Sequence record: OM386655.1
Reading direction: 5' to 3' (one strand)
DNA from: Escherichia phage vB_EcoM_ESCO10
Length of the DNA stretch: 64,000 nt
Shown here: one piece after another, positions 4,019 to 56,603 of the stretch
Layout of the letters: every line of letters begins with the position of its first letter
How positions within the stretch are numbered: the stretch's first letter is position 1
Position numbers and translations under genes: made by a program
Notes under the pieces: generated by a model
What the model saw: only the letters and a program-made list of their open reading frames with translations
What the model was told of the DNA's origin: nothing
Databases searched by the model: none

Positions 4019-4210
4019 TTATATTACAAAGATTGCTTTGTCACCATTTGCATCAGTGACTTCATAAGTATCTTCGTGGTACAGTGGGATAATCCAAGTT
4101 ACACCATCACCGGCGATAACATGGATAGCTTCTTGGTCTTGTGACACGATTTCATATTCTTCGAACAGTTCGAATACAGAAATATTAGAGCCCGTACACA
4201 TTGCACTCAT
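4019..4210 (-). CDS. hypothetical small acidic protein (63 aa)
   Basis: ORF in the gene 61-41 accessory block. Confidence 0.4.
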   Translation of the reverse strand: MSAMCTGSNISVFELFEEYEIVSQDQEAIHVIAGDGVTWIIPLYHEDTYEVTDANGDKAIFVI

Positions 4211-4406
4211 ATTGTTCCCTTCTTTTAATCAGTTGACGATGCGCCTTTTTAAGCTTACGAATCTGTCTTTTAGTAGGACGTGCAACGTAAGCTTGTGTAG
4301 TTACTCGTCCGAAAACTCCATACTTTGGAGACGGAGTATCAATGAAGACTTCCCATTGACAAGAGTAGCTATATATTGCTTTAGAAAATTGGGTTAAGAC
4401 AAACAT
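4185..4406 (-). CDS. hypothetical small basic protein (73 aa)
   Basis: ORF; Lys/Arg-rich C-terminus. Confidence 0.4.
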   Translation of the reverse strand: MFVLTQFSKAIYSYSCQWEVFIDTPSPKYGVFGRVTTQAYVARPTKRQIRKLKKAHRQLIKRREQYECNVYGL

Positions 4407-4407
4407 A

Positions 4408-4854
4408 TTAACCTCGATTCATGAAGGCGTTAAAAATCTGGTCGTCAATTGAATAAACCGGAGCTTCAAGAATTTTCAAAAGACTGTTTTTGATGTACTT
4501 GCTAGGGATACCCATATTAACGACCTCGTTATTCAATTCATTGTTTGGATTGATGTCTTTAAATTCAAACCCTTCAAACTCAACCTTGTCAGGAATACCA
4601 TCAGCGAAAAAATAAACCAATTGATGTATTGTATTGTACGAAAATAATTTAGACCTCACTGCAATAAGTTCTTGCCAGTGGTTTAATTCTCTATTAAGAA
4701 GTTTATGGGCAAATACAATCCTATCATCGCTATCAACAATAAAATAACCCAGGTATTGATGGTCGTCGCTCCAATACATCCTGTAGGCCTGTGCATTTGG
4801 ATTTTTACAACGAAGCTTTTTAATAACCAAAGTTCTGTTAATCATTTTATTCAC
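4408..4854 (-). CDS. hypothetical protein (148 aa)
   Basis: ORF abutting spackle. Confidence 0.5.
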   Translation of the reverse strand: MNKMINRTLVIKKLRCKNPNAQAYRMYWSDDHQYLGYFIVDSDDRIVFAHKLLNRELNHWQELIAVRSKLFSYNTIHQLVYFFADGIPDKVEFEGFEFKDINPNNELNNEVVNMGIPSKYIKNSLLKILEAPVYSIDDQIFNAFMNRG

Positions 4855-47426: not shown

Positions 47427-48007
47427 TCCTCAATAAAATCATTTAAATTCTGTTTAGTTTTACCTTCGTCATAAAGACGTTGTTGACGACGTAATCGCCA
47501 TGGCATTTCAATAGCCAAACACCAGATACTTAAAGCAGCACCAGCAGTAAAAAGGTTCATTAACCCAGCGCCAATAATAGTTCGTTCTAACGCATCATTC
47601 CAGTTGACATCAATTAAAAACGAGCTCAGCACTAGCATCGGAAATAAAGTAATAAGATATGCCACTACATATCGTCCAAACGTAAGCCATTCAGTATCAA
47701 TGAGCTTGGCCTTCCCATCTTGGAGGCAAATATACTTATCGTCAGTGCGAGTAATTTTCTTTGCGGGTTGCCATCCATTAACGATATATCCCATTTTATA
47801 TTCCTCAATTAAAAGCTCTTTCATATGACGGTTACAGTGCGACCAATCTACTGTACTGGCTGAAAGACCTTCATCACCATCATCAAGATTTCGCCAGGAC
47901 TTTTTAATAACCATATTTTCACCGCTTGGTACAATGATTCCGGCGTTTTCAGAACGCCGGACGAAGTTCACATCAAGGCCCATACATCCGGGTTCATAAA
48001 GAGCCAT
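47414..48007 (-). CDS. membrane-associated protein (197 aa)
   Basis: C-terminal hydrophobic helices. Confidence 0.45.
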   Translation of the reverse strand: MALYEPGCMGLDVNFVRRSENAGIIVPSGENMVIKKSWRNLDDGDEGLSASTVDWSHCNRHMKELLIEEYKMGYIVNGWQPAKKITRTDDKYICLQDGKAKLIDTEWLTFGRYVVAYLITLFPMLVLSSFLIDVNWNDALERTIIGAGLMNLFTAGAALSIWCLAIEMPWRLRRQQRLYDEGKTKQNLNDFIEECRK

Positions 48008-48693
48008 TACCAGCCCTCCATAGGGAATTCAAGATAAACCTGAGCATTAACACGAATTTCATTGGTAATATTTTTAACACGGTCAGTGTTACGAGATACA
48101 CGACCAAACCAACGCCATCCATTACTTACCGTACGAGAACCAGTATGCCAGGTTTGCCAATCAAACTGCAAGAGTGTACGGTCTGGAGCTTCCCACTGCT
48201 CTAATTCACCTGATTCAATTTTAGCCAAGACTTCTTTGTGCCATTGACGATAAATCAATTCACCTTCCGGGATTTCACTAAAGGTAGCTTCACCTGTAGC
48301 AAAATGGGTAGGACACACATCAGCGTTAACAAGACCAAGAATGTGTTCAGATAAATAGAGAGGATTGTCATAATCAGGTTGTCCTGCAGTAATAAAATGT
48401 TGGCCTGTTGGAATAGGTGGACGAGGAACATCGTCGTGGTGATAACCTGGGATAGCCGGATACCAGCCAGGCATCAACATATGCACACGCGAATCAAACA
48501 CTACTTGGTCATTGTTCCAATCATCAGGCAAGTTCATAATAAAAGAGCGCGTAATAGGGCCGCCATTATTATAAGCAAATTCTAAACTACAGTTGAAGAA
48601 CATCGGTTCGTTCTTGATTTTATCATTAGAAATGCCACCAGCAAAACCACCTACTGCACGAGCTTGACTATTAAAAGTTTTAGGACCGTTCAT
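48007..48693 (-). CDS. hypothetical protein (228 aa from ATG)
   Basis: start MNGPKTF with RBS GAGGAAAA; several His/Asp clusters; function unknown. Confidence 0.5.
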   Translation of the reverse strand: MNGPKTFNSQARAVGGFAGGISNDKIKNEPMFFNCSLEFAYNNGGPITRSFIMNLPDDWNNDQVVFDSRVHMLMPGWYPAIPGYHHDDVPRPPIPTGQHFITAGQPDYDNPLYLSEHILGLVNADVCPTHFATGEATFSEIPEGELIYRQWHKEVLAKIESGELEQWEAPDRTLLQFDWQTWHTGSRTVSNGWRWFGRVSRNTDRVKNITNEIRVNAQVYLEFPMEGW

Positions 48694-48706
48694 AATATTT
48701 TCCTCA

Positions 48707-48919
48707 TTACTTTTTATTGAAAAAGTACATTTTACCTTTAGGAGATAAAGATACACGAAGTGCGTTACCGATACCAACTGAACATTTAACCAGGTCGGCA
48801 GATTTCAATTCACCGAACGCTTGACGAAGGTCACCATCACGAGTGTTAACCATCAGGCATTTAGCACCAGCTGCACGAACTTCGTTTAACATGTTGATTG
48901 CTTGGTTAGAAAGTTTCAT
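48707..48919 (-). CDS. hypothetical small protein (70 aa from ATG)
   Basis: RBS GGAGAA; track start is a leader extension. Confidence 0.4.
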   Translation of the reverse strand: MKLSNQAINMLNEVRAAGAKCLMVNTRDGDLRQAFGELKSADLVKCSVGIGNALRVSLSPKGKMYFFNKK

Positions 48920-48943
48920 TTTATTCTCCATTTCACTCTGTTG

Positions 48944-48984
48944 TTTTGATAGGTCTATAGTATCACACCTATAGACCTTGTACA
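48944..48984 (-). promoter_or_regulatory. early-promoter-like element (-35 GTACAC variant)
   Basis: repeat family member with conserved downstream block. Confidence 0.45.
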
Positions 48985-48997
48985 CTGTTTTGTGCAT

Positions 48998-49957
48998 TTA
49001 TTTTGTGAAAGGACGAATTAAATGATGGTTATCTTGGAACCGCTTGATGTAATCATTTTCACCTAAAGCCTTATACATATTCACTACAGCTTGATAGTTT
49101 TCCCACGCGTATTCGCGGAACCATCCGGAAGTGATAGAGGTACACACTTTCTCAAGAGCCATATAGAAACTTGTGGCCGCCGGAATATTGAAGTCATTAG
49201 GAACCTGTGAACGTTCTAGCGCTAAGACACAAGTTTCTTCGTATACACCAGCCAGTTTAATAGCTTCAGGCAAAGCTTCAAACTTCTCACGAGAGGTCAT
49301 GACTTCAGAGCCTTCTTTAATATAAAAGGTATACGCCGGACGGCCTGCTAGCGCGACGGCTTCATGGATAGAGTCGTGGTCCAGAGTATAAATTGTGTCA
49401 TTAAAGAATGAAGATTTGTTAACGTCCAGTTTAGGATGAGAATAGCTCAACGTTTCTTTCTGACGTTGCAGCATGATTTCTTGGAGCTCTTCGTTCAGGG
49501 TTACACCCTTATTACGAAGGTATTTTATATGGGACATCGTCTTCAGAAAGAATGGGTTGTTCTTTAGGAAACGATGAGAGGTTTTAATAGCCAGACAGAT
49601 ATCAGGAGTAGCCCAATAGAAACCTGTCATACGATCTTTCTTAATATGATTTTCAGCATATTTCAGAAGACGATAGCTTGAGGTGATGTCTTCGTCTTGA
49701 AGCTCATCGGTGATTTCTCGTACGTTAGTAAGGGCCCGTACAATATAAGCTTCGAAATAGGTTTCTTTACCGTTGTGCATGCATTTAAAAGCTTGGACAT
49801 CAGGGTTGTCTACGTGTACATGAGCGCCGAACATCTGCGCTTTAAAGTTATTCCATGACCCTTGGTCAGCAATGAAATCCCAATCAGAATTTTCGATATA
49901 TTTACTTTCGATCAAACCTGCGTGGTGTAGAGCACGAGAACCAATAACTAACATCAT
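48998..49957 (-). CDS. hypothetical protein (319 aa)
   Basis: large ORF of unknown function. Confidence 0.55.
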   Translation of the reverse strand: MMLVIGSRALHHAGLIESKYIENSDWDFIADQGSWNNFKAQMFGAHVHVDNPDVQAFKCMHNGKETYFEAYIVRALTNVREITDELQDEDITSSYRLLKYAENHIKKDRMTGFYWATPDICLAIKTSHRFLKNNPFFLKTMSHIKYLRNKGVTLNEELQEIMLQRQKETLSYSHPKLDVNKSSFFNDTIYTLDHDSIHEAVALAGRPAYTFYIKEGSEVMTSREKFEALPEAIKLAGVYEETCVLALERSQVPNDFNIPAATSFYMALEKVCTSITSGWFREYAWENYQAVVNMYKALGENDYIKRFQDNHHLIRPFTK

Positions 49958-49978
49958 AATATTTTCCTCAGAATTAAA

Positions 49979-50215
49979 TTAAATGTCCCAGCGGGCGCTA
50001 TCATATTCATCCCATAGAGCTTCATGGGAGTTACAAACGATAGGAGCAATGACTCCGTTAATATCTTCGTTGTAAGGGCAGATAGTACAAAATGCATCTT
50101 CGAAACGAACACCGTAATCAGACTTCTTATACGCAATGTCAAAAATCTTTTTAAACTTTTCACGAGTAATGGTTTTAGCAACCACTTCAGTACCAATACT
50201 TTCGTAATAAATCAT
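49979..50215 (-). CDS. hypothetical small protein (78 aa)
   Basis: ORF; an alternative overlapping frame exists. Confidence 0.4.
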   Translation of the reverse strand: MIYYESIGTEVVAKTITREKFKKIFDIAYKKSDYGVRFEDAFCTICPYNEDINGVIAPIVCNSHEALWDEYDSARWDI

Positions 50216-50225
50216 GGTTATCTCC

Positions 50226-50426
50226 TCAGATAGGACCGTAAAGGTATGTCCAACGTTTAACGAAAGAAACTACTTCTTCCAAGGTATCGAAGACCTCTGT
50301 AGTGCCCGGAACGCCATCACCACTGATGGTTACTTTAATGCCATCTGAAACTTCCTGGAGATTAACCTCCAGTCGGTTGGCTTTGGCTTCATTTAGAACT
50401 TTGATTAATTCGTTTGCGATAGACAT
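50226..50426 (-). CDS. hypothetical small protein (66 aa)
   Basis: ORF. Confidence 0.4.
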   Translation of the reverse strand: MSIANELIKVLNEAKANRLEVNLQEVSDGIKVTISGDGVPGTTEVFDTLEEVVSFVKRWTYLYGPI

Positions 50427-50490
50427 TTTTATTCTCCTGTTCTGATAACGTGATTGTCATCAGTTGATAAGAGAATAGTACCACAGTTTT

Positions 50491-50820
50491 CTAGAGTTGT
50501 ACATCACTTCTGCAATATTCTAAAAATAATTTATTGTTGTCAACTGTATCCCAACGTCGCCAAGATGGATTCCAGACCAATGCGTTGTCACCACAATCAT
50601 TGAGCTTAAAATGGTCATAGTACATAGCTATATGTCTAGTCTCGTCACCAGAGAACCCTAGTATAGGCTCGCCGTGGGTGTGATACATATGATGGTGCAT
50701 TGAGAGGTCGCATTTATAAAACATTTCACGTTTACCGCGAATGAACAAGAATGCTTGCCCGTTCATATAAAATTCTTTATCTGTTTTCAAAAGATATTTG
50801 AATACTGAATCTTTGTGCAT
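50491..50820 (-). CDS. hypothetical His-rich protein (109 aa)
   Basis: ORF. Confidence 0.45.
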   Translation of the reverse strand: MHKDSVFKYLLKTDKEFYMNGQAFLFIRGKREMFYKCDLSMHHHMYHTHGEPILGFSGDETRHIAMYYDHFKLNDCGDNALVWNPSWRRWDTVDNNKLFLEYCRSDVQL

Positions 50821-50857
50821 AAGTCCTCCTTCACATCCGTGTGATTATTATATCCTA

Positions 50858-51082
50858 TTAACAGCTACTTGGATACCAGATTTTACCATCAGCTTGAGCA
50901 ACGAAGGTTCGACCAGCTTCTTCACCGTAACAAGAGCTATTCAGCCAATCTTCAAGACGAACTTCACCATCATAATCGTCGAGCTCGACACCAAAATCTT
51001 GAGCAGAAGCCATATCTTTAACTTTCTTATACAATGCGGCCAGTTCAAGAGCTGCTTTTTCTAATTCATTAATATCAGACAT
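50858..51082 (-). CDS. small paralog E of a tandem family (C-terminus ...WYPSSC)
   Basis: shares the terminal W-x-x-SS-C tail and upstream leader with the four neighbours. Confidence 0.55.
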   Translation of the reverse strand: MSDINELEKAALELAALYKKVKDMASAQDFGVELDDYDGEVRLEDWLNSSCYGEEAGRTFVAQADGKIWYPSSC

Positions 51083-51091
51083 TTTTATTCC

Positions 51092-51304
51092 TTAGCAAGA
51101 CATAGAGGAAGTAAACCAAAAACCTTCACCATCATTAATACCATAATCACCGCGAACCCAGCCATAATCTTCGTATTCAGGATTCTTCGGTGAAATATAT
51201 TGCCCACGTCCAGAAACATGGAAATCTTCACCAGTTTCATCAGCCACGCTCTGACCTTTACGTACCAGTTCACGGATTTGTTTTTCAATTTCATCAATAG
51301 TCAT
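51092..51304 (-). CDS. small paralog D (C-terminus ...WFTSSMSC)
   Basis: conserved tail and internal ADxxG..F..G..Y.SP motif. Confidence 0.55.
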   Translation of the reverse strand: MTIDEIEKQIRELVRKGQSVADETGEDFHVSGRGQYISPKNPEYEDYGWVRGDYGINDGEGFWFTSSMSC

Positions 51305-51313
51305 TTTATTACC

Positions 51314-51511
51314 TTAACATTCGTAAGAGGAGGACACCCAAGAGGTACCGCTAATAGTAATGCATCCATTATAAAGCGTAATATGCCTGTCTAAGTCACG
51401 AACACCATCAATATAGATATCAGCTTCTTCACGTTCTTCTTTACAAATCTGGATAACATTTTCAATAGCTGCGGCTGCAGTACGGATTGCACAATCTAAT
51501 TCACGAGACAT
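51314..51511 (-). CDS. small paralog C (C-terminus ...WVSSSYEC)
   Basis: conserved tail. Confidence 0.55.
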   Translation of the reverse strand: MSRELDCAIRTAAAAIENVIQICKEEREEADIYIDGVRDLDRHITLYNGCITISGTSWVSSSYEC

Positions 51512-51520
51512 ATAATTTCC

Positions 51521-51802
51521 TTAACATTCAGAAGAAGAGGACACCCAACCACCTTTTTCAAGGTCTGTGGTGTAGTCGTGGGTGTTAACAATGGCGTATT
51601 GAGGCTCACCATAGTTTTCCCAATGAGCAAGGTCGGCTTTCAGGGCGCCAGGAGAATAATAGTCACCGCCCATACCGCGAGCAGGGTATATATTAAAATG
51701 AGTCTCATATTTGTCTGCAATTTCCTCAGCTCGGCGAATAGCTTTATGGATTTCATTTACTGCGCTGGCCAGTTCTTTATTTTTACTATAATCGTTCATC
51801 AT
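51521..51802 (-). CDS. small paralog B (C-terminus ...WVSSSSEC)
   Basis: conserved tail and IADKY motif. Confidence 0.55.
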   Translation of the reverse strand: MMNDYSKNKELASAVNEIHKAIRRAEEIADKYETHFNIYPARGMGGDYYSPGALKADLAHWENYGEPQYAIVNTHDYTTDLEKGGWVSSSSEC

Positions 51803-51811
51803 AATAAACCC

Positions 51812-52105
51812 TTAACACATCTCAGAAGAGGAGACCCAAGCACCAGAAGTAACGATACCGTTTTCATCGACTTCGCCGCCCTTGTTTTCAATTTCATCAC
51901 GCATCCAGCGAGAGCATTCATAACCAACCGGATAATAGGTACGTCCAGAACCATATTCACCTACGTCAAACGAGACACCATACTTATCTGCAATAATGGT
52001 AGCTTCATTCTCGATATGGTCTTGGGCCCGAAGAAGTTTGCTGATAGCGTCCGTTGCGGTTTGAACGTCATTGTATTCAGGGATTACGATTTCAATTTTA
52101 TTCAT
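51812..52105 (-). CDS. small paralog A (C-terminus ...WVSSSEMC)
   Basis: conserved tail and IADKY motif. Confidence 0.55.
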   Translation of the reverse strand: MNKIEIVIPEYNDVQTATDAISKLLRAQDHIENEATIIADKYGVSFDVGEYGSGRTYYPVGYECSRWMRDEIENKGGEVDENGIVTSGAWVSSSEMC

Positions 52106-52473
52106 GATTTACATTCCTTAATAAAGGTTTCAAGTTCATTACATTTGGTTTGTTTTACATACTCATTATAATTAGCCATCGATACAGCAAATCTCTTTTT
52201 ACGTGGCTTGTTTATTTTATTGGTTTGGATGATATCCAAGACCAATGGGATAAAGTATCCTACTAAAGCAGGAACCCAAAGCCATGCAAGGCCCAGAACT
52301 TCAAATGGATGTCGAGGCATATCATTGATAATACCGCCGACAAGGAATCCAACTATTCCTCCAACCATACCAACAGGAAGTCCCATTAATAATGTAATAG
52401 TGATATCGTAATCGGCTAATGCATAACCTGGATCGGTTTTACTAGGCTTATACATTTTGAACCTCTTTAGCAT
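52102..52473 (-). CDS. membrane protein (123 aa)
   Basis: Gly-rich hydrophobic helices. Confidence 0.45.
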   Translation of the reverse strand: MLKRFKMYKPSKTDPGYALADYDITITLLMGLPVGMVGGIVGFLVGGIINDMPRHPFEVLGLAWLWVPALVGYFIPLVLDIIQTNKINKPRKKRFAVSMANYNEYVKQTKCNELETFIKECKS

Positions 52474-52984
52474 ATTCGCGGCATTCTTTAATAAAACGAT
52501 TAAGCTTACGTTGCTGTTTACGACTTTCTAATGTATACTCGTCGGCCAAAATAGTAAGCTCATCTTTATCATAATTTTTAATATCAGAGTAAGATGGTCG
52601 CCGGTCGACCATACCGAAGAGGTCGCCATTTTCTAACATCAAATAACATACTAAGTGATAATCGTCATCAGCATTAATAAGCTGCTTATAATCGCTAGGT
52701 TCGTTTAAAGCGTATACCGAATATCTTACTCCGGCGAATTCAACTCGCTTTATATCTAATCCAAGGTCAATAATTTCTAAAGCTTCTGCAAAAGAAAGGT
52801 CTTCAGCTAAAGCAAAGATAAAGGGTAATTTAGTAGTATAGCCACGGGTATTTGTTCTGCTTAAGAAATCATTAGAATAACCTAGGTCCTGGCGAATTCT
52901 ATAAAGAACTGCATTAGTTTCATGGGCAAGGCCACTATGTTTAAACCAATCAATATTTGATATAAGGTCATCATATAAGCTCAT
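52448..52984 (-). CDS. hypothetical protein (178 aa)
   Basis: ORF. Confidence 0.5.
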   Translation of the reverse strand: MSLYDDLISNIDWFKHSGLAHETNAVLYRIRQDLGYSNDFLSRTNTRGYTTKLPFIFALAEDLSFAEALEIIDLGLDIKRVEFAGVRYSVYALNEPSDYKQLINADDDYHLVCYLMLENGDLFGMVDRRPSYSDIKNYDKDELTILADEYTLESRKQQRKLNRFIKECREYAKEVQNV

Positions 52985-53626: not shown

Positions 53627-53702
53627 AGTATTTCCTTCAGTTAGATGGCATTTTGTAATCCATGAGGGCATTATACCCTGCCCTCGGAGGTTTGTAAACA
53701 TT

Positions 53703-55908: not shown

Positions 55909-55985
55909 TGGTCGGGGTGAAAGGATTCTAACCTTTAACCTGCGGTTTAGAGGACCGCTACTCTATACAATTGAGTTACACCCCG
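55909..55985 (-). tRNA. tRNA-Arg (anticodon UCU)
   Basis: hand-folded cloverleaf: acceptor CGGGGTG/CACCCCG, D-stem ACTC/GAGT, anticodon stem GCGGT/ACCGC with loop CCUCUAA, T-stem AAAGG/CCTTT, encoded CCA. Confidence 0.75.
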
Positions 55986-55989
55986 TGTT

Positions 55990-56064
55990 TGGTGGCCCTT
56001 GCTGGTTTCGATCCAGCTACCTATCAGTTATGAGCTGACAGCTCTCCCATTGAGCTAAAGGGCC
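55990..56064 (-). tRNA. tRNA with CAU anticodon (Met, or Ile2 if lysidine-modified)
   Basis: hand-folded cloverleaf: acceptor GGCCCTT/AAGGGCC, anticodon loop CUCAUAA, T-stem GCTGG/CCAGC, encoded CCA; 4 nt from tRNA-Arg. Confidence 0.75.
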
Positions 56065-56491: not shown

Positions 56492-56603
56492 ATTTTCCTC
56501 ATTAGTTGATTATTCTATTATGAAAGGCTCTTTGAGGGAAGAACCTTTGGTAATAGAGGGTACTTATTAATAATAACACACTGCTCTTAAAGCATATTAC
56601 TTG

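Follow-up and report, generated by a model that had tools for sequence, protein, structure and literature searches.

Nucleotidyltransferases of the pol-beta fold transfer nucleoside monophosphates (NMP) to hydroxyl groups of RNA, antibiotics or proteins. Among those that nucleotidylylate proteins are MNT of the MNT-HEPN systems, GlnE, GlnD and DrrA, and MNT transfers NMP to a hydroxyl of a partner encoded next to it. Other enzymes of the nucleotidyltransferase superfamily, CitX and MdcG, attach a prosthetic group to a serine of the small acidic carriers CitD and MdcC. The polymorphic small internal proteins IPI, IPII and IPIII of phage T4 carry an N-terminal capsid-targeting sequence and are cut by the prohead protease, and the precursors of aminovinyl-cysteine (AviCys)/lanthionine products, the epidermin-type lanthipeptides, have a C-terminal S-x-x-C. 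The closest described arrangement to the one reported here is that of MenA1, a 68-amino-acid (aa) long-helix protein that lies on the active-site face of its nucleotidyltransferase MenT1 (PMC10435456). Here we analysed a stretch of 64,000 nucleotides of Escherichia phage vB_EcoM_ESCO10 (sequence record OM386655.1; the window below), in which five consecutive small genes, g1 to g5 (the array; Table 1), all end in a cysteine-terminated tail and lie upstream of a gene for a 319-aa protein of predicted pol-beta fold (the enzyme). Tail genes and enzyme recur together in very different large phages, and this association points to an undescribed two-part phage system.

A cysteine-terminated tail shared by five adjacent genes

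The array consists of five head-to-tail open reading frames (ORFs) of 65-97 aa with a common Cys-ended tail, as the original prediction had proposed, and all five lie on the (-) strand. The motif W-x-x-S-S-(x0-2)-C-stop was found in g1 to g5 only among the 477 ORFs of at least 35 aa in the window, 12 of which end in Cys. All five proteins are acidic, with isoelectric points (pI) of 4.2-5.0. Their pairwise identity is 24-34%, and besides Met1 the invariant residues are one Ala, the Trp, two Ser and the terminal Cys. From g1 to g5, the N-termini read MNKIEIVIPE, MMNDYSKNKE, MSRELDCAIR, MTIDEIEKQI and MSDINELEKA.

The junctions between the genes are uniform. Each of the four spacers is 9 nt long and is built as TAA-GGnnnnnnn-ATG, so that the stop codon overlaps the Shine-Dalgarno sequence of the next gene, which suggests translational coupling. 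The same 9-nt spacing was found in phages SP18 and VR5 when coordinates were compared, and the ATG of g1 overlaps the stop codon of the upstream e.3-like gene (ATGA). The array genes are real, and they are probably co-transcribed and translationally coupled.

Other parts of the prediction had to be revised. A near-identical leader (ccttaaca...gaggag) had been described in front of each gene; on the coding strand it reads TCC TCT (Ser Ser) ... TGT TAA GG and so proved to be the end of the tail with its stop codon and the ribosome-binding site of the following gene, and no separate element. The internal IADKY...F...G..YY.P block was found in g1 and g2, and more weakly in g4. Paralogy was supported for the bodies of g1, g2, g4 and g5, whereas g3 could be aligned over the 11-residue tail only: g5 is homologous to the main family along its body (hhalign, 92.9% over 60 columns), and hhalign aligned g3 with the family at residues 55-65 alone. 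A 197-aa ORF on the (+) strand opposite g1 and g2 (51578-52171) is most likely a shadow ORF of the conserved (-) genes.

A phage-restricted family of tail-bearing proteins

To find relatives, a profile of 17 members was searched against 1.84 billion representative sequences (E <= 1e-3). The family comprises 389 clusters at 50% identity and is restricted to phages. The terminal Cys is present in 165 of the 177 small proteins retrieved, with the consensus G-x-W-x-[SAP]-S-S-x-x-C-COOH. Among the 165 Cys-ending members the Trp is kept in 162, and the first and the second Ser in 163 each. Almost all of the retrieved proteins are acidic (97% with a pI below 5.5), and the terminal Cys is the sole Cys in about half of them. 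Five mid-protein residues (A39, D40, G52, G54 and Y57) are conserved alongside the tail in most members, and tail-bearing proteins in other phages range from 52 to 170 aa. Three giant proteins that topped the profile search (4728, 2519 and 1446 aa) were rejected as relatives, being repeat proteins whose weak matches add up.

The five array proteins gave no significant family in Pfam, NCBIfam and PADLOC scans, a PDB sequence search with the small-protein profile gave no match, no relative of solved fold was found for the family, and a domain scan of longer tail-bearing proteins (108-175 aa) recognised no cargo domain. PHROG 899, to which g1, g2, g4 and g5 belong, and PHROG 4882, which includes g3, are families of unknown function.

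Two members were inspected for the placement of the motif and for fold. Residues 45-51 of g5 form a second motif copy, DWLNSSC, which is followed by YGE and lies about 23 residues before the terminal WYPSSC. This internal copy, D-W-x-[NS]-S-S-C-Y-G-E, is kept in most g5-type sequences of the fetched loci, and the double motif may mean that two tails pair together. The AlphaFold2 (AF2) model of g1, with a predicted local distance difference test score (pLDDT) of 90.4, contains a long helix at residues 14-42.

A few departures from the terminal Cys were also seen. Some family members have one residue beyond it (CN, CS, CR or CY), and a gene on a marine contig (L047, 4202-4384) ends in ...GEWTSSSQN without Cys; a near-identical gene of locus L080 ends in ...EWTSSSQNC.

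Tail genes lie upstream of one conserved enzyme gene

ORFs of 15 divergent loci were clustered, and a single family was common to all 15: the homologues of the 319-aa enzyme, encoded downstream of the array with zero to three genes between. No further neighbour was conserved across these lineages. In the window the enzyme gene lies 0.9 kb downstream of g5 on the same strand. Every tail-anchored locus with enough flanking sequence had the enzyme gene downstream on the same strand (34/34). When loci were anchored on the enzyme instead, at least one same-strand tail gene was present in 75 of 80 viral loci, almost always 0.2-3 kb upstream, and a single opposite-strand tail match was found among 9,727 ORFs.

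This synteny was observed in T4-like, Aeromonas, phAPEC8-like, Otagovirus, Menderavirus, Xanthomonas, Acinetobacter and marine phages, and in jumbo contigs of 355-371 kb. The GenBank phages with a tail gene and those with the enzyme are close in number genus by genus: 252 versus 259 for Escherichia, 57 versus 59 for Aeromonas, 34 versus 36 for Enterobacter, 34 versus 35 for Klebsiella and 18 versus 18 for Shigella. Phage T4 has neither the array nor the enzyme gene.

Enzymes without tail genes were seen in a few lineages. Short homologues of about 250-265 aa, in which BLAST covers the DUF7275 part, occur in Streptomyces, Gordonia, Mycobacterium and one Vibrio phage and have no tail genes nearby. 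Among long forms, a sole lineage (loci L112-L114 and L122) is without tail genes, and there W279, which lies in the motif CTSITSGWFR and is invariant in the 34-sequence alignment A5, is replaced by Arg. C272 is lost in the short tail-less homologues only. The W279R co-variation and the loss of C272, in what is a very small sample, may mark a tail-binding site on the enzyme. C243 was rejected as a co-varying residue, being Tyr in three lineages that do have tail genes.

Two individual loci deserve mention. Locus L074 (3176-3484, 5748-5987) is an enzyme locus without an intact tail gene, with an internal-protein-like gene (MKTYQEFINEAT...) upstream; the ORF adjoining its enzyme gene ends in ...QVCYSSSTF and may be a decayed tail gene. 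In Mycobacterium phage prophiT49-2 (L042), a gene annotated as cysteine dioxygenase (4148-4585) stands two genes upstream of a short DUF7275 homologue. This phage has no Cys-tailed genes, and the neighbourhood is probably a coincidence.

The enzyme is predicted to be a nucleotidyltransferase

The AF2 model of the enzyme (pLDDT 90.6) has a MenT-like bi-lobed fold, and its best PDB matches are all pol-beta-fold nucleotidyltransferases (MenT1 8.0, TglT/MenT3 7.1, ANT(2'') 6.4, MenT4 6.4 and LnuA 6.2). The hG[GS] ... [DE]x[DE] motifs of the pol-beta superfamily are present on the N-terminal alpha/beta domain. Their residues G6, S7, D25 and D27 do not vary in either the 34-sequence alignment or a set of 15 diverse homologues, among them the short forms of Gram-positive phages; E69 is the same throughout the long forms. 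The helical lobe contributes further residues that stay invariant even in the most distant homologues: K125, H128, K139, H194, D195, H198, E240, E241, E248 and R249. The K...D pair of MenT-type enzymes was not evident in the alignments, though GS and DxD are present. The ratio of non-synonymous to synonymous substitution rates (dN/dS) of the enzyme is 0.03-0.07, which is strong purifying selection. Judged by its modelled fold and invariant residues, the enzyme looks active.

Homologues of the enzyme form 2030 clusters at 90% identity and are annotated as hypothetical, although some Acinetobacter phage records name a putative nucleotidyltransferase. In Pfam the enzyme matches DUF7277 and DUF7275 only, with no match to DUF1814; NCBIfam and PADLOC gave nothing, and a PDB sequence search with the enzyme gave no match. 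Outside phages the enzyme is nearly absent: a scan of 185,579 species genomes of bacteria and archaea gave six matches, each on a contig that was metagenome-assembled or came from an uncultured isolate, and in four of them tail genes again lie upstream.

The tail is conserved as a protein feature on old gene copies

The tail had been predicted to be constrained, with an overlapping regulatory element as the explanation to be checked. We surveyed the codons of 131 distinct tails of the fetched loci, whose phages have a GC content of 33-58%. All six Ser codons serve for the two invariant Ser (TCT 115, AGC 39, TCC 38, TCA 31, AGT 25 and TCG 14), and both Cys codons and all three stop codons are in use. 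The DNA 3' of the tails is very variable, from overlapping start codons to promoter-like strings, and the four junction RNAs of the array show less structure than controls of shuffled sequence (z +0.8 to +2.6). The constraint was thus borne out at the protein level, and no overlapping element suffices to explain the tail.

A DNA-level origin, in which the tail would be a conserved element for ribosome binding (Shine-Dalgarno) or for translational coupling, or else a short cassette for recombination where genes meet, was considered for two reasons. At the four junctions of the window, tail codons, stop codon and next Shine-Dalgarno sequence form a near-identical string of about 25 nt with a fixed 9-nt spacing, and work on T4-like hyperplastic regions describes boundary cassettes that mediate shuffling (PMC4122927). 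This origin is refuted as a sufficient explanation by the codon data, together with the varied downstream contexts, the unstructured junction RNAs and the persistence of the tail across the whole GC range. In addition g5, the last gene of the array, retains the tail with no family gene behind it and encodes its terminal Ser by AGT AGC, in contrast to the TCC TCT or TCC TCC of g1 to g4. We regard a DNA-level origin as extremely improbable. The local DNA identity at the junctions may help unequal crossing-over, but it cannot explain the motif. These data indicate that the tail is a feature selected at the level of protein.

The same genes had been described as a rapidly diversifying family, and this was contradicted by their evolutionary rates. 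In orthologues from nine related phages, dN/dS was 0.09-0.28 for g1, 0.05-0.34 for g2, 0.02-0.34 for g3, 0.10-0.52 for g4 and 0.02-0.12 for g5 (0.02-0.5 overall). Types resembling g1 to g5 recur, at times in another order, in phages of Escherichia, Klebsiella, Enterobacter, Serratia and Yersinia. There are one to six paralogues per enzyme, each kept as an orthologous lineage. The low dN/dS of orthologues and the recurrence of types across phage genera show that the divergence within the array is old and that each copy is under purifying selection.

The tail as a possible handle to the enzyme

The earlier suggestion that the tail is a processing, modification or targeting signal becomes more specific and more plausible with the synteny to a nucleotidyltransferase-like enzyme. 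An invariant tail on diverse bodies, one to six conserved genes per enzyme and strict synteny fit a handle by which several clients or adaptors would be linked to a single enzyme. We tentatively favour such tail-dependent coupling, in which the tail would serve as acceptor or docking peptide and would tie anciently diversified protein bodies to one conserved enzyme. A portable handle would be expected to look like this, since the tail is found on bodies that are not detectably homologous or are very different in size. In the most likely version, the tail would enter the cleft of the enzyme, one of the two invariant Ser hydroxyls would accept a nucleotidyl group, and the Trp and the terminal Cys/carboxylate would act as recognition elements. 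The acceptor idea draws on the fold, which transfers NMP to hydroxyls, and on the tail, which offers two invariant ones. Alternatively, the tail would be a docking peptide through which different bodies steer the enzyme. In either version the diversified bodies would engage various host targets at an early stage of infection, for host take-over or counter-defence. A narrower proposal, which we consider rather unlikely, is a widespread, phage-only system of protein modification in which the enzyme would covalently load a nucleotide or short nucleotide chain onto a Ser or the Cys of the tail and so license the diversified acidic effectors, for example nucleic-acid or tRNA-end mimics that would disarm host defences. 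We infer the coupling (physical or enzymatic), its chemistry and its biological role from comparative genomics; the joint absence of tail genes and enzyme from T4 was counted in favour of coupling.

Several points weigh against the coupling of tail and enzyme. The case for contact or modification is indirect, and genes that serve one pathway or are co-regulated can be syntenic with no physical coupling of their products. In a few lineages the enzyme has no tail genes beside it and is thus able to work by itself, and the W279R co-variation amounts to a single evolutionary event. In the AF2 monomer of g1, tail residues 89-92 are packed as a beta-strand of the domain, with a pLDDT of about 78 in the last block. 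The internal motif copy of g5-type proteins means that a free C-terminus is not always needed, and it hints that tails pair with each other, as a dimer, metal or disulfide site, and not with the enzyme.

The main rival is that the small proteins are inhibitors or regulators of the enzyme, antitoxin-like as MenA1 is with MenT1, with the tail as a plug. A small helical protein would cover the active site and restrain or time a potentially toxic tRNA- or nucleotide-modifying activity. The precedent is MenA1, which has a long central helix, whose gene is upstream of MenT1, and which blocks the active site (PMC10435456). Tail genes likewise stand upstream of the enzyme in nearly all loci, the g1 model has its long helix, and acidic proteins would suit an electropositive nucleic-acid-binding cleft such as that of MenT3 (PMC7450476). 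We nevertheless judge this account unlikely. One inhibitor would suffice, instead of which there are up to five or six diverged paralogues, each under purifying selection, and one to six conserved paralogues per enzyme fit several clients or adaptors better than a single inhibitor. A single inhibitory interface would hardly be expected on bodies of 52-170 aa that have no detectable homology to each other, and an addiction logic is of no evident need to a lytic phage. Moreover, the C-terminal residues of MenA1 are dispensable for inhibition (PMC10435456), whereas here the C-terminus is the invariant part.

Two further explanations dispense with contact between tail and enzyme. The small proteins could be independent early effectors, inhibitors of host defence or metabolism or binders of small molecules or metals, which adjoin the enzyme through a shared pathway or operon; the tail would then be an intrinsic ligand or metal site or a two-tail dimerisation strand. 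Small acidic proteins of early regions are typical of phage anti-defence or host take-over, and the family, small, acidic and encoded in a hyperplastic early region, fits this pattern. The two motif copies per g5-type chain resemble a mimic of a tail dimer, the AF2 model puts the tail inside a folded domain, and the five mid-protein residues co-occur with the tail in most members. This account, too, is unlikely, as it leaves unexplained both the enzyme synteny across phage groups that share almost no other neighbour and the same tail on non-homologous bodies. Sorting or stability is a less probable role still: the tail would be a capsid-packaging signal, comparable to the targeting sequence of the T4 internal proteins, or a C-terminal degron for a host protease. 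Motifs at the extreme C-terminus are typical of recognition tags, and the e-tRNA region houses genes for internal proteins (ipI, ipII and ipIII in T4, Ip10 in SP18 and the MKTYQEF... gene in L074). None of the five array proteins has the N-terminal capsid-targeting sequence of MKTYQEFIAE type, however, neither packaging nor a degron explains the enzyme synteny, and the tail occurs as well in phages that are not T4-like and assemble their capsids differently. We know of no bacterial degron that resembles W-x-S-S-S-x-x-C.

Genomic context and predicted expression of the array

The window belongs to a Dhakavirus-type T-even coliphage with 95% identity to phage VR5. The array lies in the e-tRNA hyperplastic region between homologues of e.2 and e.3, and its genes are annotated as hypothetical in all related records. 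In T4, e.2 abuts e.3 with nothing between; the array is part of an accessory insertion absent from T4. The three small genes between array and enzyme (49979-50820), all of PHROGs without an assigned function, are lineage-specific and stand outside the conserved module; most other lineages lack them and have the array right next to the enzyme gene. One of them encodes a His-rich protein of 109 aa with a dN/dS of 0-0.09, confined to Dhakavirus/Gaprivervirus-type phages. It was rejected as a modifying enzyme of the module on the ground that it is absent from most module-bearing loci.

Table 1. Position and properties of the array genes and of neighbouring features in the window
Feature	Position	Strand	Properties	Family or remark
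g1	51812-52105	(-)	97 aa, pI 4.3, end GAWVSSSEMC; first array gene	PHROG 899, E 8.6e-22
g2	51521-51802	(-)	93 aa, pI 5.0, end GGWVSSSSEC	PHROG 899, E 1.4e-21
g3	51314-51511	(-)	65 aa, pI 4.5, end TSWVSSSYEC	PHROG 4882, E 1.6e-36
g4	51092-51304	(-)	70 aa, pI 4.4, end GFWFTSSMSC	PHROG 899, E 8.4e-14
g5	50858-51082	(-)	74 aa, pI 4.2, terminal KIWYPSSC and internal DWLNSSC	PHROG 899, E 4.3e-10
Intergenic spacers (four)	51803-51811, 51512-51520, 51305-51313, 51083-51091	(-)	9 nt each	all within 51083-51811
His-rich protein gene	50491-50820	(-)	109 aa (MHHHMYHTHGE)	PHROG 9796; between array and enzyme
66-aa gene	50226-50426	(-)	66 aa	PHROG 14244; between array and enzyme
78-aa gene	49979-50215	(-)	78 aa	PHROG 3723; between array and enzyme
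Predicted pol-beta-fold nucleotidyltransferase (enzyme)	48998-49957	(-)	319 aa; DUF7277 residues 1-101, DUF7275 residues 120-305	phrog_2141
e.3/e.4-like predicted membrane protein gene	52102-52473	(-)		PHROG 2330; VR5/SP18 annotation; directly upstream of the array, boundary of the insertion relative to T4
Candidate early promoter, sigma-70-like	53670-53698	(-)	TTTACA-17-TATAAT, 11/12 consensus match	about 1.6 kb upstream; best on the coding strand

Early or middle polycistronic expression of the array is likely, given the promoter-like site upstream and the lack of a T4 late-promoter box (TATAAATA) between 50 and 55 kb. A promoter and terminator scan of the array region showed no enrichment. 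In the whole 64 kb, matches to middle promoters of the MotA-box type (TGCTTNA-N11-13-TANNNT) were found 14 times against 3.4 expected, mostly on the (-) strand, which fits a T-even early/middle region; on the coding strand, the closest match upstream of the array lies at 56570-56594. Genes for tRNA-Arg (TCT) and tRNA-Met (CAT) stand at 55909-56064, on the (-) strand like the array and about 4 kb upstream of it. The closest structural relatives of the enzyme act on tRNA 3' ends.

Significance of the module

The near-invariance of an extreme C-terminal motif over hundreds of clusters is rare for small phage accessory proteins, and it is rarer yet that such proteins are linked to one conserved enzyme in large phages that differ widely. 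Five hypothetical proteins thereby become a defined and testable two-component module of an enzyme and its putative tail-bearing clients, and the enzyme itself merits separate study. Should the tail serve as a handle for modification or docking, the module would be a new way for phages to deploy diversified effectors through one enzyme, and the tail might find practical use as a short portable tag. Covalent modification of the tail, if it occurs, would make the module a new kind of phage effector-licensing system. The module is present in RB69-, JS98- and VR5-type phages, though not in T4, and in many candidate phages for therapy that infect Escherichia, Klebsiella, Enterobacter, Acinetobacter, Aeromonas and Pseudomonas, and so it may bear on differences in host range.

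Comparison with known systems

PHROG 899 and PHROG 4882, RB69ORF139c and PHG31ORF064c are the same sequence families as the array proteins; the databases give them no function, motif or enzyme link, and PHROGs divides the tail-bearing proteins among separate families. A search of the available literature found no mention of the DUFs, the PHROG numbers, the RB69 and phage 31 ORF names or the motif. As far as we know, neither the motif nor the family size nor the link to the enzyme has been described, and the sequences stand in databases as hypothetical proteins.

Several known systems share single traits with the module. In g1 to g4 a Ser stands three residues before the C-terminal Cys (S-x-x-C-COOH), as in AviCys precursors. 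Unlike these leader-core peptides, however, the tail-bearing proteins are folded and 52-170 aa long, and g5-type tails have S-S-C unspaced; no Pfam family of a dehydratase, cyclase or flavin decarboxylase was found in the ten window genes scanned (48007-52984). With the T4 internal proteins the array has in common that small diversified accessory proteins are encoded in arrays in the same hyperplastic region and carry one short constant handle. Here the constant part is C-terminal, in contrast, and the N-termini do not resemble the MKTYQEFIAE targeting sequence. CitD and MdcC with their transferases CitX and MdcG are comparable in that small acidic proteins of about 100 aa with an essential Ser have a dedicated transferase, whose gene is close by. 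Sequence similarity to CitX, CitD, MdcG or MdcC was not seen (no Pfam match), and the Ser of CitD and MdcC lies in an internal loop, whereas here it lies in a C-terminal tail, with several diversified 'carriers' per enzyme. The MNT-HEPN systems differ in that a HEPN partner is not found here, and in the acceptor, which is Tyr there and would be one of two candidate Ser here in a modification that is hypothetical.

The nearest parallel is with MenA1-MenT1 and the MenAT/AbiE (DUF1814) systems, in which a bi-lobed pol-beta-type nucleotidyltransferase is likewise encoded just downstream of a small-protein gene. The enzyme described here is not a sequence member of DUF1814 or of another named nucleotidyltransferase family. 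MenAT systems are bacterial toxin-antitoxin pairs and the module is phage-restricted; they have one partner, compared with one to six diversified partners here. The C-terminus that MenA1 can dispense with is replaced here by an invariant extreme C-terminal W-x-S-S-S-x-x-C. By analogy, the module may be regarded as a variant of the theme of a nucleotidyltransferase with a small partner protein, one in which a single enzyme is accompanied by diversified partners that share a common tail.

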